DNA of 64,000 nucleotides from Torpedo marmorata (taxonomy: Eukaryota): positions 99,014,001-99,078,000 of the forward strand of contig OZ360223.1 in the NCBI GenBank assembly GCA_977017645.1. Reading direction: 5' to 3'. The notes under the pieces were generated by a model that saw only the letters and a program-made list of their open reading frames with translations, was not told where the DNA came from and ran no database searches. The position numbers were made by a program, and so were the translations under genes. Numbering within the stretch: position 1 is the stretch's first letter; the number at the start of each line of letters is the position of its first letter. Below, piece after piece: positions 17,916 through 51,105 of this stretch.

Positions 17916-19089
17916 CTGAAAACAAAATGGTCATTTTAACTCTGAAATCCATAACTGACATGACCAGCTATTATTCAATTAATTTCATCAACTGTATACA
18001 GCAAAACTTATATTGAATGATGCTGGGTTTTTCTTTCTGTGATAAATCCAACAATTTGGTAAACCAGAGAAGAATCACCATTGTACAGATCTATTTATTG
18101 GAAGAGGACAGTTCTTACATCTACATTTCCACATTTCCTTGTGACCTGGGCCATTCAGCTCATTAACTCTATATCAGGTCTCAGAGCAATCCTAATTTTC
18201 CCCGTAACCTCTTCCCACCACATTTCCATCTCTTCCACCACCCATTCACAGTGTGTGCAGTTTATAGGGGCCAAATGACCTCCCAACCCCCATGTTTGTG
18301 GGAGGAAACCGGAGCAACCGGGGGAAACCCATGTGGTCACAGGGAGAGTGTGTAAACTCCACACAGAGAGCACCAGAGGTCAGGAATTAACCCCGGTGTC
18401 TGGCGCTGAGAGGCAATTACTCTACTAGCTGTGCCTCCGTGCTGCCCAAACACAATACAAAGACAAAATATTTATTAACAACTACCATTTATTTATTCCC
18501 TGTTATAATTTCATCTGCGTCCACATCCAAGGGACCCATATTCATCTTTCCTGATCTCTTTCACTTTGCATCACATAAAGGATACAAAGAACTTGTGGGC
18601 AACCGTAGGGATCTAATAAGAGTGTGACGTTTAAATTAATTAATATTTATAGAGATTAATTGGTATGAAAAGCTTACAACCCCCAGGGCCTGATAATCAA
18701 AGTGTTAAGGTTTTAAACGTGGAGGGTGTTTTGATCTTTATGAATTTTTCTCTATTTTAGAATGATCGCCATGGATTGGAAGTGGAGAAACATAATCTTG
18801 GTGTTGCAAAGTGTGGGCGAGAGTTTGTCAACCACTCCGTTTGACATCAGCTGAAATTACTTCAGCGTTCCGACTGTTCGAGTATCAGGAACTCGCCCTT
18901 ATGGAATTCACCAACCACTGCCTGAAGACTTGAGATGCGGAATAAAATTTGCTCTCATGGAAAATCAACAATTTTCTTTTCACCTTGCGTTTCTTGATGC
19001 ACGAGAGATGACGTGGCTTTGCGTTACAGGAAATTGCAAGGCAAATCTTTTTTCTGGGAAAGCAACCCCTAATACCTGTATTGTAAGGA

Positions 19090-19341
19090 TTTTAAAATTT
19101 TAAATTTAGACATACAGCATGGTAACAGGCCATTTCGGCCCATGAGTCCGTGCCGCCCAATTTACACCCCATTAACCTACACCCCCGGTACGTTTTTGAA
19201 CGGTGGGAGGAAACCGGAGTCCCCGGAGAAAACTCACGCAGACACGGGGAGAACGTACAAACTCCTTACAGAGAGCGCGGGATTCGAATCCTGGTCCGGT
19301 CCCGATCGCTGGCGCTGTAAAGGCGTTGCGCTAACCGCTAC
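19090..19341 (-). mobile_element. Young V-SINE
   Basis: Close reverse complement of 13829-14075. Confidence 0.9.
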
Positions 19342-19458
19342 TGAGTATTACTGAGGATGTGGTGACTGCACCTAAAGTTATAATAGTCGGGATCAACAGT
19401 ATCCTATGAAAGGGAAATATTATTTGTCAAATCCAATATGATTGTTTCAAGCTTAATA

Positions 19459-19679
19459 CAGTAAAACCCCAGTTATCTGGAATTCAAGCAACCGGCAGCC
19501 TCAAGCAACCGGCAAAAAATTCGAAGAAAATAAATAGGTAAAAAATATGTAAGTTTAAAACTGGCGCACCTCGCCATTAGTTCGCCAATCACGCAACACG
19601 CAATCTCAAGCAACCGGAAAATACACTTATCCGGCATCAACCAATCCCCGTAGGTGCCGGATACCAGGGATTTTTACTG
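19459..19679. mobile_element. Tc1/mariner (Tigger-like) MITE, 221 bp
   Basis: TA-CAGTAAAACCCCAGTTATCTGG ... CCGGATACCAGGGATTTTTACTG-TA; internal TCAAGCAACCGG repeats. Confidence 0.85.
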
Positions 19680-19973
19680 TACATAGAATGGAGAACAAGT
19701 GGTTGTATTAAATTTGGACTTTCAGAAGGCATTTGATAAGCATCAAGAGGAGTTTAGGATACACGGGGTTGGTGTAATATTTTAGCACAGTTTGAGGATT
19801 AAGAGGGAAAGCAGAGTGGGAACAAACGCTGTTTCGTCAGATGTACAGTCAGATGATAAGAAACTTGAACTTGAATGGGCCATTTTCAGGACTGGAAAGT
19901 CAGTGCTTGAGCCTCAGCTAATTATGGCGTTGGTCAATGGCAGATAAGTATTTTTTTTAAATGAATAAATTAC

Positions 19974-20034
19974 CATAAAGGTTGATGAATCGAACACAGC
20001 TCTCCACCACAAGCGGGATGGGTTGTCCGGAATC
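19974..20034 (-). CDS. SRGAP3: SRGAP3 exon (~13), start of RhoGAP, DSGQPIPLVVESCVRFINLY(G)
   Basis: 61 nt; tttaAG / GTaatt. Confidence 0.95.
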
Positions 20035-22899
20035 CTTAAAAACAAGAGGGAGATTGTCAGGAATTGGGAGACATTGCAGCAAAACCCCAGGCAGGCAGAG
20101 ACAGAGCAGGAGCTGAACACAAAGCAGCGGGTGGGGGCGGGCTGGGGCTCTCCTGGTGAACTCCATCTGTGCATCTCTACGGCCAATCAGTGCCGGCTGG
20201 TGATCCGAGAGCAATACTCACTAGTTCAGGAAGTGTCTGACCTCATTCTCCAACCACAGAGCCCTCCAGAGTGTCCCATCCAACAGCTCCAGCACTGGGG
20301 CTATAAACGTGCCACAGTCTCTCAGAACTCTTCGAATAAGCTGCCTCAACCCTATCTCTTTTAGAGAGAGAGAGTTCCACAGAACAGAAGCAGGCTGTTC
20401 GGCCCAACTTGCCATGCTGCCCAAACTAGCTCCATTTGCCTACATTCGGCCCATATCCCTCTAAGCGTTTCCTAGCTGTGTACTTGTTCTTTTTGTTCAA
20501 GTTATACATCTGACATTTGTGGAGGGTGACTTCCCATTGGGAGATGGATGCTGAAGGGAAACCCAGAGACTGCCACTCACCCACTGTCAAAGTACCTGTG
20601 ACTAGGGCAACTCTAATGCTTTGATTTGAACTAGGATGCTAGAGAGAGAAGGGTAACTCTTAGCTCTACTCTGCCAATCCCAGATGCATTTAAGGCAAAG
20701 GTGGAAAGAGAAAGGAACAGAAGGATGCCGGGGCAGGCAGAGATGAATTAGCGTGACTGCAGACTGCCATGCATCTTGAGCACTCGCAAAGAGCTGTGGA
20801 GCAGAATTGACTCTGCTTTTGTGTGTGAAAACAATGGAAACAGTGTTTCTCAGAGAGGCAATGTTTTTCAGAAGGAATAAAATGCATTCCTTGTGTTGGG
20901 AGGGTTTCCAAATCACGAAATGGCTTGCAGACACTGTTGTTACGCAAGGAAGGAACCTCCACATCAGGAAGGTGGCGTCATTATGGAACACAGCCAATCC
21001 TTTCAAAGAGGTGAGCGAAGTTGGGAGGGATGTTGATGAGAGGTGAATGGGTGGAGATACTATAGCTGACTGGGGCATGGAGGTCCATATAGCACAGAAG
21101 GGGACTATTCGGACTCTACCACCTACTCAGGAGTGAGTGAGTGAGTGTGTGTGTGCTTGTGTGCGCGCGTGCATGCAATCACACTGTTCATGTGGAAGGT
21201 TTTGAGTGCGGGGCTTGGAGAGCTGTGGCCCCGCACAATCTCCCTATGATATTGCCTAAACATCTGACATGAAATTAAAAAGTTTTATTTGTTTGAAAAA
21301 AAATTCTGCTCACAGCAGATCAACAAAATAATAAGCCCGCTAATTCAAAGGATATGTGCAATAAATTCAAATGAATTAATATTTCTGTGTTTTACTTCTC
21401 AATTCAAATGAATGTTAATGAGCCCCTGGACATTTCAGTGGGAGAGATATTGCAGCAAAACCAGGAATGAGATGAATTTGTTAAATTAAATAGATTTCAT
21501 TCTTGTGTGTGTCCATGGTGCTGCAGGATGGTAATGAGTTCTGTCTCTGTGCTGGGTGTGGTGCAGTTTCTGAAAGGGATAGAAAGTAATAGGATTCCTG
21601 TAGATACAGCTAACTGACACCGTGTCTGTACTGTTGCTCACTGTCCTGTTCCTGTCACCCTTCATATGTCCCAGGTCGGATTTTGCTTTTATTTCAGTGG
21701 CCTGTTGCCATTGGTAACAGCAGAGCAGCCTGCAGTTGAGAACAGGCCAGAGACTCAACTCTCTCTGCCTTGTGGGCTGCTGAAAGGGCTGCCTCTACCC
21801 CTCACAATCCCTCATGCTACGGCCCATCCTTCACTTAAACACAGGTAGCTCTGATTTACAAGGGTGATTCGTTTCCGGATACACAACCCTCCATCATCTC
21901 CAATGGACGCAGTGGCTGAATTAGCTGGGACAGAATTTGATTCCCAGTCTGCTGTGGGGAAGAGGATCTAATTCGAGTTAGAGAGGGCAGGATCACCTTG
22001 CCTGAAGTTCCATCACAAGTTGACTCCTCCTGAGTTTGTGGTGGGGGGGGGGGGGTCAGGAGTGAGATGGTTATGATATCAAAACCTTTCGCTATTCATA
22101 CCCAGTACTTACCCAAGCCAGCCAACAACCAAATGGTCGACTCAACTGTCCACTTAAGCAGTTTAACAATCCACCCTGTTGTATCAAAGTGTTACACAGG
22201 GCAATCACAGATGAGCAATAAATGCTGGTCTTGCCGGAACACCCACATCCTGAGAATTAATTCGAAAACCCACGGTTCAGTGGATGAATCTTCCCGTTTC
22301 CATGGAATCGGGAGGCCCCAGGTCTGATGCGGACCGGTGCTGTTGGCAGACCTTCATCCACATTTGTTTATCGTAGAAATACTGATTCTTAGTGAATTCA
22401 GCAAAGGAACAGCAAGATCCCCCAATTTATGTCATAAATGACCAGATGTTCTATTGGTGCTTTTAATGGAGGCCAAGACATCTGGAAGAAGTCCTGTGTG
22501 TGTGTTTTGTTTTTGTTTTAAAGTAAGGAGGGATTTTGTTTAAATTCTCACCAGATTGGGAGTAGGTCAGGCTGTAGAACTGGAATACGAGCCCCTAAGT
22601 TGGGAGTCTGAACCCTTGACATTCTGGCTGAACTGGTGAGAACTTAACAACTCACCAGGCCTGGCAACATGAGGGAATAAACTGGCATGGGTTGCTGCAG
22701 GGATGGTGAAAGAGTTGGTAAATGTTAGCAGATCCTGAAGTACCGCTTGGCTGTGGGGCAAGAGCAAAGGATAGGCTTTGCTCCACAAAATGCCAGCACC
22801 ATCTCAAAGGGCCAAATGGCCTCACCTGTACAGTTCTAATTCTATAAACTCTGCACCTTTACCCTTTATACTGTTATCCTTAGATCACTCAACAATTCT

Positions 22900-23180
22900 G
22901 GCGGGGGAGTGTTGGAAATTATCAAAGGTTACAGCGTAGCAAACCGCAAGTAGCTCCTCTCCCATCCCAGGTGGATGTCACTGATCCTAGTGGTACTGTT
23001 TCAAAGGAGGTAAATATCTCTGATGCTCCAGCCAACATTTATCTCCCAACCAAGTACTAAACATAGATCACTCGGTCACCATCCCCACAATTGTTGGTGG
23101 GAACTTGCACCAGTAGGAAGCCATCTGTCCCACATTACCTCAACGACAATACTTCAGAAGCACATCAATGGATGGCAAGT
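22900..23180 (+). mobile_element. Old Deu-domain SINE
   Basis: caggtggatgtcactgatcctagtggtactgtttc...gccaacatttatctcccaacc...acattacctcaacgacaatacttcagaag. Confidence 0.65.
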
Positions 23181-23699
23181 AGATGGAAGCACAAAAGGGT
23201 CTCTCCCTCTAAGCCTCGTCCCAATTAACCTTAGGTGTTGACTTCATTGATCCTTCCAAAGTAACTGTGATCTTAGTCCTCACCTATTTTGTAACACCTC
23301 GCATACTCCTTACTGACACATCCCCTGGTACTGCTGAAAACACATTAAAATCTCCCCTTTCCTAAAGAAATCAAAACTATTGCACAGAAATTCCAATCTG
23401 GCCTGTCAGGGGCCATTTCAATCATCATTCTGCTGCATTCAAATTTATTGGAGGGACTTGCAAGTTTTCCCCCTTGAAGGTACAACGTTGGGTTCTCCTC
23501 ACCCCAGGCCGTGTTCGGGAAGGCCAGTCCCGGGCCCCGAGAGGCTGATGATGGGTAGGCCCAAGATCAGCGAGTCAACCTCAATTCATTGGTGGGACGC
23601 CAGGAACCTTTTGTGTGGGATGGGAGTGGTAGAGGGTAGGAGAGAAAAATAATGCACCACCTGTTGAGTTTTGGGGAAGGGGTGGTGGGGAGTGAGAGA

Positions 23700-24325
23700 A
23701 ACTGTGCAGCACCTAATGTGGGATATAGGGAATGGGGGCAGTACCTGTTGTGGGATAAAGGGAATGGGGGCAGTACCCGTTGTGGGATAAAGGGAATGGG
23801 GGCAGTACCTGTTGTGGGATAAAGGGAATGGGGGCAACATCTAATGTAGGATAAAGGGAATAGGGGAAGCATGTGATGGGGGAAGGTAATGGAGGCAGCA
23901 CCTGTGGATGGGGGAAGGGAATTGGGGCAGCACCTGTGGATGGGGGAAGGGAATTGGGGCAGCACCTGTGGAGGGGAAGGGAATGGGGGCAGCACCTATA
24001 TAGGGGGAAGAAAATGGAGGCATCACCTGCGGTGGGGGGATGGAAATAGGGCAGCACCTGTGGTGGGGGAAGGAAATGGGGGCAGCACCTGTAGTTGGGG
24101 GGAAGGGAACGGGGCGGTGCCTGTGTTGGAGATGGGAATGGGGGCAGCACCTGTGGTGGGGGAAGGGAATGGCTGTAGCACCTGTTGTGGGGGGAAGGGA
24201 ATTGGGGCAGCACCTGTTATGGGGGAAGGGAATGGGGGCAGCGCCTGTGGTAGGGGGAAGGAAATGGGGGCAGCACCTGTGGAAGGGTGGAGGAAATGGG
24301 GGCAGCACCTGTGGTGGGGATGGGA
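23700..24325 (+). repeat. G-rich minisatellite, ~32-bp unit (gggaatgggggcagcacctgtggtgggggaa)
   Basis: About 19 tandem units with multiple G3-G5 runs and CACCTG. Confidence 0.95.
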
Positions 24326-24883
24326 GTTGCTTCGTAATTGAGTGTCGAGGTACTAGTCCTCTGCCCCTTATGACCGCTCCTATAGTTGCAGTGTGACAAG
24401 GGATAGACAGAGCAGGTAGAGAATAACCCCCCCACCCCACGCACTCAGTCGGGACAGTGGATGAACGGATGGCATGGGGAGGGGGAGAGCTGGTCTCTAC
24501 GATTAGGTAAGGTCCCGTGACATTGTTAGGCCTGATCCCAGCAGCAACACACCATTTCTATGAGGGATCGACTAGCGCGTTGAAACAGAAGAAGGATTTT
24601 GTAAAATTAAGCTGTGGCAGAGACCTTTAAAAGTCAGAGGCATCCAGTTAATGTTGCACTAACCTCGAGGTGAGGACATCACCAAAGTGATCTGCGATTA
24701 CTGAGGTCTGACTGTAACATCAAGTTGGCGTGAGATGGGGATGGTGAGGGGTTCCTTCAGACTCAAGCCTGCCCCTCCTCTTCTCACCTCACCCCTACTC
24801 CTTGTGAGCAAGCACTCCCACGGAAGAGAACTCTGCTTCCCAAGAGTTCTTCTGGTAAGGTGTAGAATAAAGGTGGACAGGAT

Positions 24884-24886
<3 letters not shown>

Positions 24887-24933
<47 letters not shown>
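24887..24933 (+). repeat. (CA)n microsatellite
   Basis: Direct observation. Confidence 0.97.
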
Positions 24934-24937
<4 letters not shown>

Positions 24938-25291
24938 CTACTTTCTACTTTCTACATTTTTACAACATCTTTCAATCAAGCAGAATTTTTAATTTTACTG
25001 CCCCAGTGTTTTTTAATCCTTACTTGCTTGCCACATTGTCTCCAGGGCATCCTGAGCTCCTGATGAAGAGGCTCCTACAATGTGGTTGAAGGCTAAGTAG
25101 CTCTCCCCTTAACTTGTTGACACTTGATTGCTGGCTCATCAATCATCGGAGGGTTATAACAGCACCATGGAAAGCGGTCCTGATCAACATGATGCAAAAC
25201 CTGTGGGGACACTCCCCTCCTCCCCGCAACCACCTCCCTTCCCCCACCGCAGCCAACTCCCTTGTCTCAGAAACTGTCTCATGGTGTATAC

Positions 25292-25322
25292 CTGAATCCT
25301 TGTTCGAGCATTCCTTCTTCCT
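25292..25322 (-). CDS. SRGAP3: SRGAP3 alternative exon 12b (short), (R)GRRNARTRIQ
   Basis: 31 nt; gctaacAG / GTatac; same phases as 12a; resembles recalled short human isoform GRRNARTRNQ. Confidence 0.85.
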
Positions 25323-26354
25323 CTGTTAGCAGCAAGGCAAGAGAAAAAACATAGATGAAGCAAAGAATAAAAGTAAGTTTCTTGTGATCCCATTGAGATC
25401 TCAGGACAGGGTGGAGAAGCTGGAATGCAGTGGCAGCTTATTGGATTTGGGGCTGTGGGCACCTCCAGTGTTCCTGGTGTTAGATTATCAGTTCTTGAAA
25501 ACCAGCAGCGTTGTCTTTCAAATCAAAATAATTGCCTTTTCTTGATGGAAACGCGTTCCTAACTGACCTATAAATGGCTTCAGCCCCACAACAACCTTCA
25601 ACATCGATGGAAAGGGGCTTGCAAAATCACCCATGTGCCGAATGCGACTATGTCCATATCTCAAGATCTAATACAGACATGAAAGATGGTTGATTTGTTC
25701 TTTAGTAAAGCAAAATTAGCAGGTTGGGACTGTGCTGGGTTAATTCATCCTTAATTGGGCAGGACTCGTAGGTTGGAGATGGGAGAGAGTGAATCACAGT
25801 GAAGCAACTCCCCGACATGAAGGGTGCCCATGGTGAGGTGCTGGATTATGAACATGTAGGCCAAGAGGGCATTCCAGGTTGTCAGCTAGCATCAGGCAGT
25901 CAACCAAGTCAACACACCCCAAGAACAGATTCAAATGGAAAGAATTGTGTCTGCAAGGAAGCTACAGAGGAAGGGGCTCGAAACAGAGGTTGTTACAGTG
26001 CAGGGAAGCAGAGAGAGTTGAGCTTGGGTCCAAGACACAAAGTAATAAGTTTCTGAGTTCAATGCCGTCGAGACAGATGGGAGTAAAATTAGACACGATC
26101 AACAATGAGGAGAACTTTCTACCTGGTTCCTGCTGCGTAGTCTTGAGCTAATTATGTCCAGTCTGTTTGAGTTTACAAAACAAAATCCCTTTGCTTTTCT
26201 GCTCTCCCTCTCATAGCAGTTGAAAGATTTGCATAATCATTGTTTAATTGTCTGCTTTACACAGAGCTAACATGACCTCCCTGCTTTTGTGTTTGCTCAC
26301 TGGTTCCACCCCAGGAATCCATGGGAGCTATTAATTCCCACTCTTGGTGGGAAT

Positions 26355-27248
26355 TGCTGTTCACCCTGCTGACTCATGACTGTGCAGCAAAACACAGCTC
26401 AAATCACATCATAAAGTTCGCTGATGATACAACCGTGGTGGGCCTTATCAGTAAGAACGATGAGTCAGCATACAGAGATGAGGTGCAGTCGCTAATGGAA
26501 TGGTGCAGAAACAACAACCTGCAGCTGAACGTAAACAAAACAAAAGAGTTGGTTGTCGACTTCAGAAGGGCCCGGGGGATCATTCTCCTTTGACCATGGA
26601 CGGCTCTACCATTGAGGTCGTAAAGAGTACCAAGTTTCTTGGAGTGCACTTGGCGGAGAGTCTCACCTGGTCCCTCAACACCAGTTCCATAGTCAAGAAA
26701 GCCCAGCAGCGTCTTTACTTCCTGCGGAGACTGAGGAAAGTTCATCTCCCACCCCCTATCCTTACTACATTCTACAGGGGATGTATTGAGAGTATTCTGA
26801 GCAATTGCATCACCGCTTGGTTTGGTAACTGTACCATCTCGGACTGAAAGACCCTGCAGAGGATAGCGAGGTCAGCGGAGAAAATTATTGGAGTCTCTCT
26901 CCCCACCATGACAGACATCTACAACACACGATGCATGAGGAAGGCTAAAAACATTGTGAAGGACTTCTCACACCCCTTTGGTAAACTGTTTTCCCCTTTG
27001 CCATCTGGAAGGAGGTACCGAAGCACTCGGGCTCGTACGTCCAGACTGTGCAACAGTTTTTTCCCCCAAGCCATCAGGCTCCTCAATTCCTAGATATATA
27101 TGTGTATTAGCAAGTTATAGTTTTTTCTATTGTATTATGATATTTATGTACATCTGCCCACGGTCCTGGAGAAACGCTCTCTCATCTTACTGTGTATATG
27201 GTAATGAACGACAAATAAAGGTGACTTGACTTGACTTGACTTGACTTG
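26355..27248 (+). mobile_element. Rex1/Babar LINE, 5'-truncated, relatively young
   Basis: [46 protein letters not shown]; AATAAA plus (GACTT)n tail. Confidence 0.93.
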
Positions 27249-27556
27249 GTGTTTGGTCCTGGTGTTCGAGTGCTCATGCAGGTCTCTCCAAAATGATCTA
27301 ACAGCTTCTGCCTCCACCACCTTTCCAGCAGTGCTCCTGACCCTTTTCTGCCTTGGGTAACTTCCCTCAAGTCTATCCGCCAACTGAATCAAATCTAGTT
27401 GTCGCACTCTATGCTAGGGTCCTTCCTATTCGCCTCATCTCAGCACCATGATTATGTGCAGCTTCTTTGCTTCAAAAGAATTAACTCCAGCCCAGCCAGT
27501 ATCTTCACAACTATAATTCTCCAGTGTTGGCAACATCCTTATAAATTTGATGTAAC

Positions 27557-27778
27557 ATTTTAATTTTAATTATACAGCAGAATAGAAGGCCCTTCCGGCC
27601 CATGAAACCCGTGCTGCCCAATTAACCGACCAACCCCTTACGTTTTGGAATGTGGGAAGAAATCGGAGCATCCGGGGAAAACCCACACAGGTCATGGGGA
27701 GAATGTACAAATTCCTTGCAGACAGCGCCGGATTCGAACCCTGGTCGCTGGCGCTGTGATAGGATTGCGCTAACTGTG
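27557..27778 (-). mobile_element. V-SINE
   Basis: gacagcgccggattcgaaccctggtcgctggcgctg (reverse head). Confidence 0.85.
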
Positions 27779-28128
27779 GAACCCTACTCTGCTCTCTCCA
27801 GAATAGTGCTTCAGCTGCGGCTTCACTACTGTCTGAGAAACTTCCAGCAACATCCTCTGTCCTCCTTTATTCTGTTACTCAACTGAATGGTCAGGAGCCT
27901 CTCATCTACCTGTCCCACCACACTCACAGTTTTGTCGGCATGCAGTCTAAGGTCCCCCTGATCTACACTTCTTGGGTACTGTATTTACTGCTTATCTTGC
28001 ACCATTTGCTCTCCATTAATACATCCTACTACTCTTGGCAGGATTCTGTGTCCACTGGGCAACCCACGGATAATCTCACTGTAGCTTAGAACTCTTTCAC
28101 TGCCAACCACACTGCCCATTTTGATATA

Positions 28129-28830
28129 CAGTGAAACCCCGATTTTACGCGCCCCGATTTAACGCGAATTCAGATATAACGCAATGAGTCATTGGACCTG
28201 CTGATCAGCCTGCGCCGTCTGCCCGGCACCTGAAGTACACCGTCAGGCCCTCGGCCGCCGACACCCGCTGTGGCGACCGCTCCCGGATCCGGGGCTTGTG
28301 GCAGGCCAGCGAGTGGTGGAGTGCGGCGCCGCGGAACTCCGGCAGCCGGCTGCCCTGCAGGTCAGCTGGAGACGCGCACACCGGCGGCCGCTGGTTGAAG
28401 CTGAGAGCCGGGCTGGTCCGCAGCAGCCAGCACAGGCGGCAGTTGCAGCACGGCGGGTTGTTGTCCAGGCGCAGCATGGCCAGGCTGCGCGCTGACGGCA
28501 GTGTGCTCTCTTCCAGCATGGTCAGCGCGTGGCCAGCTCCCTCAGCTGTACAGCTGCCGAAGGTTCTGCTCCTGCAGGGAGCTGATGCCCAGGTAACGCA
28601 GCCGGAGTGTGGCCAGGTTGTGCAGGTAAGGCAGGGATTCGGCAGAAATGGAGGTGAGGCAGGTTGAACAAGTTGCCGAAAGGTTGAACAAGTTGCCGAA
28701 AGTGCCCGGTTCCATGCTGCTGATGATGTTCTCGCTGTATATGTAAGTAACCCCGATTTAGCGTGACCCCGCTTTTTTCGCGATGACATTTTATGGACCC
28801 AAACGATCGCGTTATAACGGGGTTTCACTG
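28129..28830. mobile_element. Non-autonomous Tc1/mariner (Tigger/pogo-like) TIR element carrying a captured gene fragment (Pack-TIR)
   Basis: TA-CAGTGAAACCCCGATTTTACGCG ... CGCGTTATAACGGGGTTTCACTG-TA; 23-bp TIRs with 3 mismatches; TA at 28127-28128 and 28831-28832; subterminal CCCCGATTT repeats. Confidence 0.9.
28205..28738 (-). pseudogene. Fragmented LINGO-family (LRR, LRRCT, start of Ig) coding sequence inside the TIR element
   Basis: Three segments: SENIISSMEPGTFGNLFNL; LTSISAESLPYLHNLATLRLRYLGISSLQEQNLRQLY; LTMLEESTLPSARSLAMLRLDNNPPCCNCRLCWLL...PVCASP...ACHKPRIRERSPQRVSAAEGLTVYFRCRADG. They resemble recalled LINGO1-3 in order, with frameshifts and internal deletions. Confidence 0.85.
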
Positions 28831-29844
28831 TAATTTGGTGCAGTAGCTCCCACATTTAAGACCAAGGGGGTCCCGTTGCTGAGGCCTGCGGAACCCCATT
28901 TACACCAGCACTCCTGCTAGAACTATCATCCTCCCCACCCAGTTCGTTTGGGTCTTACTGTTCTGATCAATCTGCCACTTCTTCAAACGTGTTGCTTAGA
29001 TCTAACATTAGGTGCACTACCCTCATTGGAAGATTCAGTTCAGTCAGCAAACAAAAACACCGGGTTCACTGCAGTCTAATCCCACCGGGGCTCTCTTGCT
29101 TGAGCATTTGTCCCTCCACACTCAAGCCCATCAGGGGAAAGGGTTGGAGGGATCTCTCTGCTGGACAACAACGAGCCGCAGGCAGCTCTGGTTGGTTTTT
29201 ACCTCTCTGTGAAGCCACCTACGGCACAGGTGGAGTGGGGATCAAAGGTGAGATCCTCTGGTCTGCGTAGCTCAAATTTACCTGCACATGGATGAGCCTT
29301 AGAGATCAGGAAAGGCCTGAGCAGAGTCAAACTATTTAAGATTTATGTTACTATTGACAAAAGTCTATCAATGTTTGACAGAATGTTGAACTACCTGTAT
29401 TATTGATCGATAGTTTGGGAGGGGAGGAACAAGTGGGCTCTGTTCCAGGTTTGACTCCAACAGCCGAGACCCATGGCCTTTTGGGGAAGGGAAATAGAAG
29501 CGCAGTGCCATGGTTATTCGAAGCGGAAGAAGCGGTTCCTACTGCCGGTGTATGGCATCACCTCGTTTGATATCTCTTACACATTGGGACTGATGAGATG
29601 AGAATCGAACACAAAACCACACTCTCCCTTCTCTCCCACCAACCTCTACTCAGGTTGTCAGAGGCCTGTGACTAGACCACTATTTACCATAGTGGGTTGG
29701 CAATGCCAGCATTTATTACTCATCCTTAAAATCCCTGGAGAAAGTGGCGGTGCACCACCGCCTTCTGTGTGGTGTGAAAAGGTAAGTTGGGAAATGGAAT
29801 AGTTTGTCCCATTCCAAGTTAGTTCCAGGAAATGGAAATCAAAA

Positions 29845-30040
29845 ATAAAATACTGCAGATGCTGTGAATCTGAAATAAAAGCAGAATACTCAGCAGGTCA
29901 GGCAGCATCTGTGGAGAGAGGAACGGAATTAACATTTCAGCTCAAAGATCCTTAGCTTCAGAGCTGAAACTTTAACTTTGTTTCTCCTTCACGGACGCTG
30001 CCTGATCTGCTGAGTGTTTCCAGTGTTTTCTGCGTTTATC
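29845..30040. mobile_element. Penelope-derived hairpin element
   Basis: actcagcaggtcaggcagcatctgtggaga ... tcacggacgctgcctgatctgctgagt inverted arms. Confidence 0.75.
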
Positions 30041-30249
30041 TAATTTCCAGGAACTTTCCCAGGGAGGTTGAAGTGGTTTCTGGAACCAGGACATGTAATT
30101 AACGCCCAGTGCCAAGCTGAGCCGGCAGCAAGTCTACCAAGAGCACAAGAGGTGCACCGCAGCCCCAGGAGAGACGGAACTAGCAAGAGAGACAGAGAGC
30201 CACCATTCCACTCAGAGTTTGCATTCTCCCACCGCCTGCCACCAAGTAC

Positions 30250-30352
30250 CTGAATGAATGTCTCCATATCGCCATTAAACAATTTATGATTATACCGTGA
30301 GCGAGGCCTAGGCTTCCTCATTTTCTGTGGCTTAGGGGGGAGCGATGGGGGC
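30250..30352 (-). CDS. SRGAP3: SRGAP3 alternative exon 12a (long), (R)PPSLPPKPQKMRKPRPRSRYNHKLFNGDMETFIQ
   Basis: 103 nt; tctctcAG / GTactt; phase 2 to 0. Confidence 0.93.
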
Positions 30353-30866
30353 CTGAGAGAAATGGAACAAAATCAACACACAGAGAAAACAAGAACTTGG
30401 ATCCGAGCAACAACAGTTAATCATCCATTTTACAGGGTTCACCAGCAGTCATTACCCAGCATGATTTGAGGCTTTGCTTGCTGTGTAACATGAGCTTCAG
30501 CATGTACTGGTTGCTCTCCTCCCCCATCTTCTATGTTGGTTAGTCTGCTCTCTTCCTGATTCCATAGACACTAAGCAATGCTGGCCGCTCATTCATGTGG
30601 TCTTTCATTAGCTCTGAGTTGGGTTAGCAAGCAGCAGCAGGGTAGGGTCAATGACAGGTAAGGCTACCGCCAATCCAGCTCATATTCCTTCATTGTTTCC
30701 TAGAAGGAGGCCACTTGGCCCATCATCTCTTTGCCAGCTCTCTCAGAGCGTTCTTATCAGTCCCATTCCTCCACTAATTTTCCTGTAACCTCTTATCTCC
30801 CCCTTTCACATCAACTCCACCCCCCCAGATTCTACCACTCACCCACACACGAGGGGTACTTTAGAG

Positions 30867-47737: not shown

Positions 47738-49767
47738 TAGGAGGAATTATTTCATTAGTTACATTTTTGCTTGTTCCCTTGCAGAAGGAAAATCTTGGAT
47801 TTATATAGCACCTGCAACAGCTCTCAAAAAACATCAGTGGCAGTCAGTCACCTTCAAATAAAAGACAACGTGGGCAACGAGACAAACAATAAACCACCAG
47901 CTGAACACACACCATCTTAAACACAACAGCTTTAGACCAATTTTATTTGTTGTTCTTTTAAAACCAGTCTCATCCTTTTCCTGGACAGCTCCTTATACTT
48001 CTAATTTGCAAGTGCTGGTGGCTTTTTAAATGAGTGCTTCCGAGCTAGATTCATGATTCACAAAAAGCTCAGTTAACATTCAGTGACATGGCCATATTCC
48101 CAACAAGTGAACCTCCAACACAAAGCTCGGATTTAGAAGTACTGGAACTCAGGGCTCACAGGGGTATTGCATGGACTTATTGACCAGCTCCACCTCTAAC
48201 CCTCATGTCCAAACCATTTTCCTTTGGCAGCATGTCCAAGTTGATGCACCCACTGCGGTAAAGCGAGACCTTATAGTGAAGCAGAGGTCTGTGACTGAGT
48301 TGCAGTCACAGTTTATGCAGTAAATGTCCTTTCTGAGAAAAATATCACTCAAGTACAACTGATTTACAGAAGAACATCAGAAATAGGAGCAGGAGTCAGC
48401 CATCTGGCCCGTCAAGCCTGCTCTGCCATTCAATCAGATCACAGCTGACCTGGCTGTGGATTGAGACCACAACCCTTAATTCCCCTATGCCTTAAGTATA
48501 TTTAATGAGGCAGCCTCTACTGATTCCTTGGGTAGAGAATTCCACAGATTCACTCACTCTCTGGGAGAAGCAGTTCCTCCTCATCTCTGTCTTAAATCTA
48601 ACCCCCACCCCCCTGGATCTCTTGAGGCTTTGACCCTTGGTTCTCGAGAAGATGTTTCAGTGGAACCATTTGAGGAACAGCATGGGGGGAGGGGGATGGA
48701 TTCTGCACCACCTCCTTGAGAGTGCTCCACCACTGTGGTTGAGTTGTGTCTCAGCTCCTTCTAAGTTGCTCCGCTTCACATCCTCTTGTACCCCTGAAAA
48801 TGAAAATCTGCTGATGCTAGAAATTGGGAGATGAAATCAGGAAATGACGGAAACACTCAGCAGGTCAGGTAGCGTCCGTGGAGAGAGAAGCACTTGCAGG
48901 TCGAAAAGCCTTCACCAGTCCTGAGAGGTTAACAGATGTTCTTTCCACAGATGCTGCCTCAATACCCATTAGTTGAGGGAAATCTCTTGATCTCTCCCTT
49001 GAAAGGTCCCATCCTCTTCAGTCAAAACTAGAGAGCAAAGGTTTCAGGTGAGAGGAAGGAGGTTGAGAGGGGATCTTAGTGGTTAATCTTTTACCCAGAG
49101 AGTGCTTGATATCTGGAATGTGCTGCTGGAATCAGATGCAATCATTACATTTAAAAGGCATTTAGACAGACGCTTAAATAGGGATGGCATTGAAGGATAT
49201 GGATCTCGTGCTTGGTCAACATGGACACATTGGGCTGAAGGGCCTGTCAGCTGTACAACGCTATGGCCTTCTATTGTGTTGATCAACAGGCTGTCACTGA
49301 ATTATCAAAAAACTTCTTCAATAAACTTCAGACTCAAACAAAAAGTAATCAAAGGAATTTAAAGAATGCAAACACATTTGAATGGCCCGGGATCCGATTG
49401 TTAATTGGGGCCGTATTAGGACAATCCTGGTCACCCTCCAAAGAGAAAGGACTGAAACCAATGGATGCATCAGCTGTTCATCAGCCTCAGTTTAGGTAGG
49501 GCAACCCAGCAATGGGTAACTAGGGTCGGTCTCCTGGAAGGATCTTGCACTTAAAAGAAGCAACGGGGAGAGGAACCTTCTCAAGCTCAAGGCGGACCAA
49601 GAGAGAGGGTTGTCCAGTGACTAAGTACCGGCCTGAACTCCTCCATTTCCTCCATTGTGTTCCTTTCTCCCTCTCTTAATGACTGTACCAGATAAAGGGA
49701 GTAAATCCACAGAACTTCACACCTCCACCTCACTCGACCCACCTGGAAGTGATTAATGGCATCATAC

Positions 49768-49989
49768 CTCATCTCCCATGTGCGGCTGGAATTCAAATTT
49801 GGTGGGTGGGCAGAAGATTTGGTTGTACATGTCCATGACCTTGTGCTTGTCACTCCGAGCATCCAGGTTGTCCACCGCGTTCTCGATGATGTCCAGTCCC
49901 TCGTGTCGGGACGTCTCCAGGTTATACTCTGCTGAGAGGAAGGTCCTGAAGGTACGGGCTAGGCCAGCATGGAATCCCAAATCAGAGCA
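49768..49989 (-). CDS. SRGAP3: SRGAP3 exon (~7), CSDLGFHAGLARTFRTFLSAEYNLETSRHEGLD...FEFQPHMGDE
   Basis: 222 nt; tctccccAG / GTatga. Confidence 0.96.
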
Positions 49990-50109
49990 CTGGGGAGAAA
50001 GCAGAGAGGTGGGGAGATAAAGGAGAATTTGTCATTCACGTCACTGAACCATGTGAGCAAAACTAGCATTCAAGTTTATTTATCATCCGATTGTACAAGT
50101 ACACCCAAC

Positions 50110-50361
50110 AAATTTAAATTTTAAATTTAGACATATAGCATGGTAACAGGCCCTTTTAGCCCACGAGCCCGTGCCGCCCAATTACACCTAATTGACCTAC
50201 ACCCCCGGTACGTTTTGAAGGATGAGAGGAAACCGGAACCCCCGGGGGAAACCCTCGCAGACACGGGAAGAACGTACAAACTCCCTGCAGACAGCAAACC
50301 CCGGTCCCAATCACTGGCGCTGTAATAGTGTGGCGCTAACTGCTACGCTAACCGTGCCGCC
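50110..50361 (-). mobile_element. V-SINE
   Basis: Reverse head cgctaaccgtgccgcc; inserted in a Rex1-type tail remnant. Confidence 0.88.
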
Positions 50362-50849
50362 TAACCGAGCGTTCTCCGGTCCTGGGTGCAACACACTGCA
50401 TACACACGTATAGACATATCACACATACAGACAAATGATACATATGCACAGTACGTATATATAAATATTAAAATAAATACATATTATTGTTAAATAAACA
50501 GTAGAGTCACAGTGGGTTTGTCGTTCAGCCACTCAGGTCACTAATAGAATGGAACACATGACACTGTCAGGAATCTCTTGCTCTTCAAAATAGTATAATG
50601 AGATCCTAAATGTACACAACAACACAGGTTAATGCTTATTCTCAAACTCCAACAGTCCAGCACTCCCTCAATACCACACTGTCTCCTCCTGGGATATACA
50701 CAATATCAGCTGGGGCTTGACCAAGTGACAAAACCAAGAAGGAGAGACTCCTGAACGAACCTCAGCATAGTGAAGTGATATTGCCCATGCTCCATTCTAA
50801 CTGATCTCTCTATGTGACTCTGCACTCTGTACTGTGTTTCATTTTTACA

Positions 50850-51105
50850 TTTTAAATTTAATTTTAAAAAAATTTATTTACAGCACGGTAGAAGCTGATT
50901 CCGGCCATTTAAACCCGTGCTGCCCAATTACACCCAAATTAACCTACAACCCTCATATGTTTTGAAGGGTGGGAGGAAACCGGAGCACCCGGGGAAAACC
51001 CACGCAGACACGGGGAGAACGTACAAACGCCTTACAGACAGTGCCGGATTCGAACCCAGGTCGCTAGCGCTGTAATAGCATTGCGCTAACCGCTACGCTA
51101 ACCAT
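50850..51105 (-). mobile_element. V-SINE
   Basis: ggaaaccggagcacccggggaaaacccacgcagacacggggagaacgtacaaac. Confidence 0.88.

Follow-up and report, generated by a model that had tools for sequence, protein, structure and literature searches.

Within the 64,000-nt stretch of Torpedo marmorata DNA analyzed here (the window), a short segment that translates to neural receptor-like peptides lies between the terminal inverted repeats (TIRs) of a transposon, which raises the question of where this coding sequence came from and how it came to be carried there. A preliminary description of the window had proposed that the segment is a gene-capturing, non-autonomous DNA transposon (Pack-TIR) with LINGO-family cargo. 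Our analysis confirmed a Pack-TIR copy of 702 bp at window positions 28129-28830, with TA on both flanks and 23-bp TIRs in which 20 of 23 positions pair (Table 1). As described, its interior is GC-rich (67-73%, versus approximately 47% around it) and devoid of transposase sequence, and the LINGO-family nature of the cargo was borne out by a match of the minus-strand frame at 28214-28531 to LINGO1 in the PDB (E 9e-23). The cargo of this copy is made up of four LINGO3 pieces rather than a single stretch. The family to which it belongs, hereafter the LINGO3 Pack, has a length of 681 bp; a 20-bp tandem duplication at 28661-28700 is private to the window copy, whose CpGs number 59 of the 75 present in the family majority sequence.

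The host gene is a member of the srGAP family on the minus strand, with an exon at 49765-50031 matching srGAP2 at 7e-35; the paralog is putatively SRGAP3, judging by its motifs. The open frames on either side of the element would make the window copy intronic, unless an unseen exon lies between them. A repeat, presumably SINE-like, occupies positions 27600-27775, immediately to the left of the insertion site. Elsewhere in the window, the CpG observed/expected ratio is raised at 19001-20000 (0.91) and 50001-51000 (0.65), where GC content is ordinary, and these two segments are possibly other transposon copies.

Table 1. Features of the LINGO3 Pack copy and its surroundings, in window coordinates.
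Feature	Position	Strand	Remarks
TA target-site copy, left	28127..28128	+	704 bases (element and a single TA) missing from an organism B contig
Left arm, 70 nt: 23-bp TIR (28129-28151) and two 15-nt subterminal repeats	28129..28198	+	Shares homology with the 5' terminus of the 1.9-kb transposase element
LINGO3 piece 4, 18 nt (donor L063 1955-1972, Ig domain)	28198..28215	-	Overlaps the arm by 1 nt and piece 3 by 3 nt
LINGO3 piece 3, 318 nt (donor L063 2007-2324)	28213..28530	-	Last LRR, LRRCT and start of Ig
2-nt filler standing for 300 nt of donor	28531..28532	+	Frame broken here in the family majority
LINGO3 piece 2, LRR, 128 nt (donor L063 2625-2752)	28533..28659	-	Window copy lacks one base near 28546
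LINGO3 piece 1, LRR, 59 nt (donor L063 2994-3052)	28659..28737	-	241-nt donor gap, 1-nt overlap; contains the private duplication 28661-28700
11-nt filler joining cargo to right arm (many copies have 9 nt)	28738..28748	+	
Right arm, 82 nt, with 23-bp TIR (28808-28830)	28749..28830	+	Shares homology with the 3' terminus of the transposase element
TA target-site copy, right	28831..28832	+	
Host context: two exon-bearing srGAP-family open frames, 30043-30372 and 19960-20217, either side of the element	19960..30372	-	

Searches of the 6.2-Gb genome with the element yielded 2694 candidates, the best 40 of which, apart from the window itself, were all copies at 86-91%, spanning most or all of the element and distributed over many contigs. 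The flanks of the 30 Pack copies retrieved are unrelated to one another, in line with the expectation that the same cargo would recur in different surroundings. After removal of duplicates, 63 cargo-bearing copies were available, 50 full length as judged by their BLAST ends and 13 partial; leaving the latter aside, 49 of the 50 full-length copies have TA on both flanks. A CpG-free cargo word of 23 nt has 288 exact matches in the genome, one of them the donor gene, leaving 287 others, and these matches, together with the TA flanks, uphold the proposal that capture by a non-autonomous pogo/Tigger-type element was followed by spread through transposition. Exact matches to the same word are present in 17 of 30 copies chosen by a right-arm word, in 7 of 13 chosen by a left-arm word and in 21 of 30 top matches; the total number of LINGO3 Pack copies is likely to be 410-530, or about 500, with a floor of 287, an estimate that may count haplotype duplicates on unplaced contigs.

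The preliminary description had also suggested looking for an empty TA site in related species. In organism B (run X2), one contig crosses the orthologous site and skips 704 bases, corresponding to the element and one TA, within an intron that differs from the window at 53 of approximately 716 bases in two listed contigs (~7%). Because this orthologous site is empty and holds a single TA, the window copy is an insertion. The animal-wide survey of Tan et al. 2021 (PMC8277862) concluded that transposition plays no part in the origin of most animal Pack-TIRs, and single-copy elements formed by gap filling are the commonest animal kind in the available text of that survey, but a single-copy origin at this site, or an assembly artefact, is exceedingly improbable: there are hundreds of copies with different flanks, the B site holds no element at all where a cargo-free one would be expected, the donor is on another contig (C54, the window being on C22) rather than nearby, and the same junctions appear in independent public runs. 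A one-off repair accident was rejected on the same grounds of copy number, differing flanks and empty site.

Five LINGO genes were found in the genome. The majority sequence of 30 copies matches one of them (L063) at 99%, versus 70-79% for the next-best paralog, and differs from it at only 3 of 523 bases (0.6%). L063 is an intact open frame of 633 aa with LRR and Ig domains, its named relatives are LINGO3 proteins, and phylogenetic inference places it within the shark and ray LINGO3 clade (100/99). Judged by sequence, the cargo donor is this host LINGO3 gene, which identifies the donor paralog that the preliminary description had proposed to look for. At least one of the three differences between majority and donor arose on the element side, where an invariant Phe is altered. 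No arm matches were found in L063, L109 or L110, covering approximately 10 kb on each side of the donor, and given this lack of flanking arms the donor is not a segmental duplicate of the element. The L063 branch is long (0.32, versus 0.02-0.08 for other shark and ray rows), denoting fast protein change. Two very divergent LINGO-like genes beyond LINGO1-3 (L064 on C79 and L065 on C2729) were also observed, one of them on a small contig.

The four cargo pieces, of 18, 318, 128 and 59 nt, keep the order and orientation of the donor and are drawn from a 1098-nt stretch of it, of which they represent 523 nt (48%). From the left arm onwards, the first two junctions overlap by 1 and 3 nt, the third is a 2-nt filler, the fourth overlaps by 1 nt and the last, ahead of the right arm, is a filler of 9-11 nt. 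Two of these junctions break the frame in the family majority itself, and the cargo was therefore non-coding before it spread. Hence, the claim that part of a neural receptor gene had been captured holds as regards its LINGO3 origin and does not hold as regards a single stretch, since the family amplified four pieces that were already frameshifted. Neither the signal peptide nor the membrane segment is present in the cargo, from which most LRRs are also missing and which itself carries no intron ends. The two cargo peptides submitted to Pfam matched 0 families and a word-indexed protein search with the cargo passed 0 of 164 candidates, whereas a full HMMER search, like the PDB search, recovered LINGO. 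Splicing was rejected as the origin of the three cargo gaps, the ends of which are not GT-AG on the coding strand when inspected by eye.

This arrangement could have arisen if, following a break in a Tigger element, repair synthesis changed template to LINGO3 DNA, made three jumps within the 1.1-kb stretch and then returned to the right arm. Such template hops would leave junctions with overlaps of 0-3 nt or fillers of 2-11 nt; the overlaps and fillers seen here fit a FoSTeST or template-switch origin, with which they are compatible without being proof of it. If 1.1 kb or more of LINGO3 had been captured in one block and had then lost three internal segments before amplification, donor order and orientation would be preserved as well, and internal deletion does happen in the family, as evidenced by a subfamily without majority positions 53-144 and by the common deletion derivatives of the related transposase element. 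Against such a stepwise history, no copy with either of the two large missing donor stretches was detected: the candidates for them (2 of 2 and 3 of 3) are the donor or its paralogs, leaving no longer-cargo precursor in the genome, and among the listed pieces from organisms B, D and E the missing stretches occur only on single donor-like contigs. Later deletion forms, moreover, coexist with their parent, so that lost parents become an extra assumption. We regard the stepwise origin as plausible though not the likelier account, and lean somewhat towards template-switching capture in a single putative event. When we looked for a parent devoid of cargo among loci with the identical right-arm word, all of the first 30 of 215 matches proved to be cargo-bearing.

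Thirty loci chosen by the left arm comprised, by eye, 14 with Pack cargo, 7 of a derivative family (family B), 4 of a minisatellite-bearing family and 5 with the start of a transposase. With this transposase start as the query we obtained 52 matches, retrieved 30, and aligned nine elements that have both arms and measure 1.8-1.9 kb, leaving out one more full-length locus. These nine elements have a majority frame of 541 aa in which the last two aspartates are separated by 34 residues (DD34D; a hand count, also made on L136), and the CENP-B_N, HTH_Tnp_Tc5 and DDE_1 domains score above the Pfam cut-off on individual copies (L037 and L134). The Pack arms (70 and 82 nt) match both ends of this 1.9-kb transposase-bearing element, the kind of partner that the preliminary description had advised searching for. 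The transposase elements lie 2.5-3.9% from their own majority at non-CpG sites, a range similar to or slightly above that of Pack copies. One transposase copy (L136, G000:C25:23360719-23363742) has an open frame of 556 residues and a damaged left end.

Members of the pogo superfamily are defined by a TA target and TIRs of 40 bp or less, and the Tigger and pogoR groups within it by a CENP-B_N, HTH_Tnp_Tc5 and DDE_1 layout, with a DD29-36D spacing in Tigger and a range that likewise takes in 34 in pogoR (Gao et al. 2020; PMC7386202, in the sections available). The Pack family has the TA duplication, a 23-bp TIR and a partner transposase with these domains and a spacing of 34, which suits Tigger and fits the pogoR range too. 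By these sequence features, the Pack family is a non-autonomous member of pogo/Tigger type, a layout that does not separate Tigger from pogoR. It resembles other Tigger/pogoR-type members in its TA target, its TIR of under 40 bp and its DD34D partner, and differs from superfamily members in lacking a transposase and in having an interior of host exon DNA instead of deleted transposase. Since both arms were kept, the transposase of the 1.9-kb element could have cut the chimera and pasted it into TA sites genome-wide, and the Pack was likely mobilized in trans by the DD34D transposase. The 3 of 23 bases at which the Pack left TIR departs from the autonomous TIR count against this.

Derivative forms of the Pack were also seen. 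The subfamily without positions 53-144 accounts for 5 of the 63 aligned copies and 4 more recognized by eye. Family B, with 78 matches, contains the left 98 nt of the Pack, including the junction of pieces 4 and 3 and approximately 28 nt of LINGO3, followed by a minisatellite, and would most simply derive from the Pack. At family B loci (L033, L035, L039, L049, L052, L053 and L058), the minisatellite has a unit of 26 nt and the right end is an 86-bp mini-element with two TIRs. Sixteen family B matches on small contigs (C154-C782) have one variant base in common, which suggests that a copy lies inside a large array of repeats. Four further loci (L042, L046, L048 and L057) have the same left arm and the same minisatellite as family B, the arm being followed by what we take to be the end of another Tigger-like element.

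A sample of 30 TIR ends, taken from 532, revealed a second cargo: 8 belong to the LINGO3 Pack, 14 to minisatellite families and 4 to transposase derivatives, 1 was unresolved, and 3 have a new GC-rich interior that consists of part of the last coding exon of GMIP together with its splice acceptor, and whose best match is an electric ray protein. The GMIP family (L187, L197, L198 and L203-L214) is approximately 760 bp long, with some 520 nt of exon as cargo, and the presence of intron bases in this cargo indicates capture at the DNA level. Among the best 40 of 76 candidates, one locus without arms is the intact donor (L204, G000:C77:2690012-2690524), to which the family majority is 95% alike; both arms are present in 10 of the 11 other retrieved loci, and 28 further places are known from matches alone, bringing the places with GMIP cargo, donor aside, to approximately 39 or more. 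The left arm of the GMIP family continues with patches of 20 and 38 nt from distant parts of the autonomous element, a patchwork that fits repair synthesis hopping among templates. About 17 GMIP-cargo matches of similar length fall within 7 Mb (G000:C45:22.5-29.4 Mb), perhaps inside a larger duplicated unit.

LINGO3 Pack copies average approximately 4% from their majority, with 1.8% (top matches) to 2.7% (marker-chosen copies) at non-CpG sites and 11-14% at CpG sites, and across 1950 pairs among the 63 copies the mean distance is 7.8% and the closest 4.2%. With even the closest pair 4.2% apart, there is no sign of recent movement, and in our best explanation the family is now inactive. The suggestion that the event is young was not sustained, given these distances, the divergence of CpG sites and the presence of the family in organisms whose intron at this site differs by ~7%. 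The mutation rate of sharks is very low, at 7e-10 per generation, in the available part of PMC10587355, and the divergence of the Pack would represent tens of millions of years, uncalibrated.

An uncorrected count at non-CpG sites gave a pN/pS of 0.70 (p 1e-4), but purifying selection on the cargo was rejected when this signal vanished under a null matched to the mutation spectrum, with 458 synonymous changes seen versus 448 expected and an omega-like ratio of 0.97, or 1.12 for unique events only. Piece 3 is frameshifted in 20 of 53 copies and open in the donor frame in 31. These open frames, and the existence of hundreds of GC-rich copies some 4% from a majority that is itself 99.4% like the donor, might be taken to mean that certain copies now serve the host, for instance as sources of LINGO3-regulating RNA or as new exons. 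We consider this quite improbable, as decay is neutral across the whole family, open frames are expected at such low divergence, and the broken majority frame and the protein features and intron ends missing from the cargo argue against a product; no sign supporting a function of Pack copies emerged in this analysis. Pack copies are best read from their substitutions as decaying neutral passengers.

Public data from other organisms, with 6 of 20 runs entering the cross-species contig comparison, bear on the age and route of spread. Among the listed contigs, those of organisms B, C, D and E that align to the donor show Pack junctions or loose ends shaped like them, and the filler and the three diagnostic bases also occur in contigs of these four organisms. 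In organism I (run X17) the arms are covered and the cargo has almost no coverage, which is not proof of absence. Contigs with arm-cargo junctions in run X5 were not accepted as transcription, the RNA nature of that run being a guess. The donor ortholog of B differs from L063 by 4-10% and that of E by 4-5%, versus 0.6% for the Pack majority. Since these orthologs diverge far more than the Pack majority does, inheritance of the family requires slower change in the lineage studied here, which fits the more decayed state of the long Pack contigs of B and E (10-18% from the donor) relative to copies in this genome and the deletion joints common to several organisms. Inheritance across species is what we infer from these data.

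Horizontal transfer is the alternative, the family having arisen here after the split from B and E and then reached them with its LINGO3 pieces. The proximity of the majority to its donor, with one or more of the few differences on the element side, would accord with such a late origin, as would the distances of the donor orthologs in listed contigs of B and E (58 of 731 and 63 of 1442 bases, respectively). Furthermore, 8 of the 12 listed differences common to B and E have A/T here and G/C there. Polarization of three amino-acid changes with protein outgroups was divided, with codon 307 derived here, codon 314 derived on the B and E side, and one change ambiguous. Transfer is nonetheless unlikely, because shared deletion joints suggest inheritance of an already diversified family and because the decay of the B and E contigs points to faster rates there and not to late arrival. 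We hold as similarly doubtful the wider proposition that a pogo/Tigger mini-element moved neural-gene pieces horizontally among ray lineages, that its ends are a repeated exon-capturing vehicle (LINGO3, GMIP), and that elasmobranchs hold a plant-like, high-copy Pack system missed by published animal surveys.

Under inheritance, the origin of the family and its branching into deletion subfamilies would date to about the time of the split from B and E, or to shortly before it, and movement would have continued after that split, the window insertion being absent in B, and then stopped. Overall, we assign a probability of roughly 85% to the reading that the LINGO3 Pack is a non-autonomous pogo/Tigger-type transposon with at least 287 and likely some 500 copies, carrying four collinear LINGO3 pieces that were likely captured by faulty repair, likely moved in trans by a DD34D transposase and now decaying neutrally.

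Multicopy Pack-TIRs are already known in animals: in the available text of their survey, Tan et al. 2021 report 370 Pack-TIRs in 100 animals, with four families multicopy (PMC8277862), and the multicopy set includes Pack-hAT-N8_XT and two other frog families, one alligator family and Drosophila Ssk-FB4 (PMC8277862). The LINGO3 Pack has the attributes of this class, namely the ends of one TIR element, a host parent that is not flanked by arms and multiple TA insertions. It shares with the published cases host cargo between TIRs, repeated transposition, a distant donor, the lack of a cargo-free orthologous element, short overlaps or fillers at junctions and a GC-rich cargo, seen in 4 of 5 cases in the legend of Supplementary Fig. 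17 (PMC8277862). It is unlike them in its four-piece cargo, deletion subfamilies and derived chimeric family, and in its approximately 500 copies, versus 3 in the illustrated frog case and 4 for Ssk-FB4, a roughly 100-fold excess over the published example (PMC8277862). Ssk-FB4 shows selection, of which the LINGO3 Pack gives no sign (PMC8277862). The kind of element is thus already known, and what is new is the copy number, the pieced cargo and the descendants.

To be retained in the published survey, a case needed a cargo measuring 80-120% of its parent in length and a top hit that was unique (PMC8277862), and both filters would discard the LINGO3 Pack, with its ratio of 523/1098 (48%) and its best 40 matches all siblings and not the donor. 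The elephant shark, the only cartilaginous fish found there by the word "shark", has 0 Pack-TIRs in the accessible text (PMC8277862). The accessible portion of a survey of host genes in transposable element consensus sequences (PMC3597677) contains nothing on the LINGO3 case, and we found no literature on a LINGO-carrying transposon; the family may already be in Repbase or Dfam.

Among other capturing elements, bat Helitrons (Thomas et al. 2014) offer, like the LINGO3 Pack, a vertebrate instance of non-autonomous elements amplifying host gene pieces to hundreds or more copies with later subfamilies (PMC4224331), HelibatN3 carrying a NUBPL fragment in about a thousand copies (PMC4224331). These are rolling-circle elements with no TIRs or TA duplication and with captures biased to promoters and first exons (PMC4224331), whereas the LINGO3 Pack is a cut-and-paste element with internal coding pieces. 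Plant Pack-TYPE elements (Pack-Mariner, Pack-MULEs) are also non-autonomous TIR families with coding DNA and stepwise change of cargo; in the sections available, plant Pack-Mariners are mostly low copy, and the clusters of over one hundred are hAT and PIF (PMC8903248).

In this genome, approximately 500 copies go back to one capture, which also gave rise to deletion subfamilies and to a further family of chimeric structure; part of an exon from another gene was amplified by the same ends. With both the donor and a partner transposase identified, and with an empty site and copies from other species available, the origin of multicopy Pack-TIRs can be tested directly. In practical terms, gene annotation and read mapping can be led astray by LINGO3-like fragments that number in the hundreds. 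Because the survey filters discard families whose cargo is in pieces and whose siblings are numerous, plant-style amplification of gene fragments by cut-and-paste elements may be undercounted in vertebrates.
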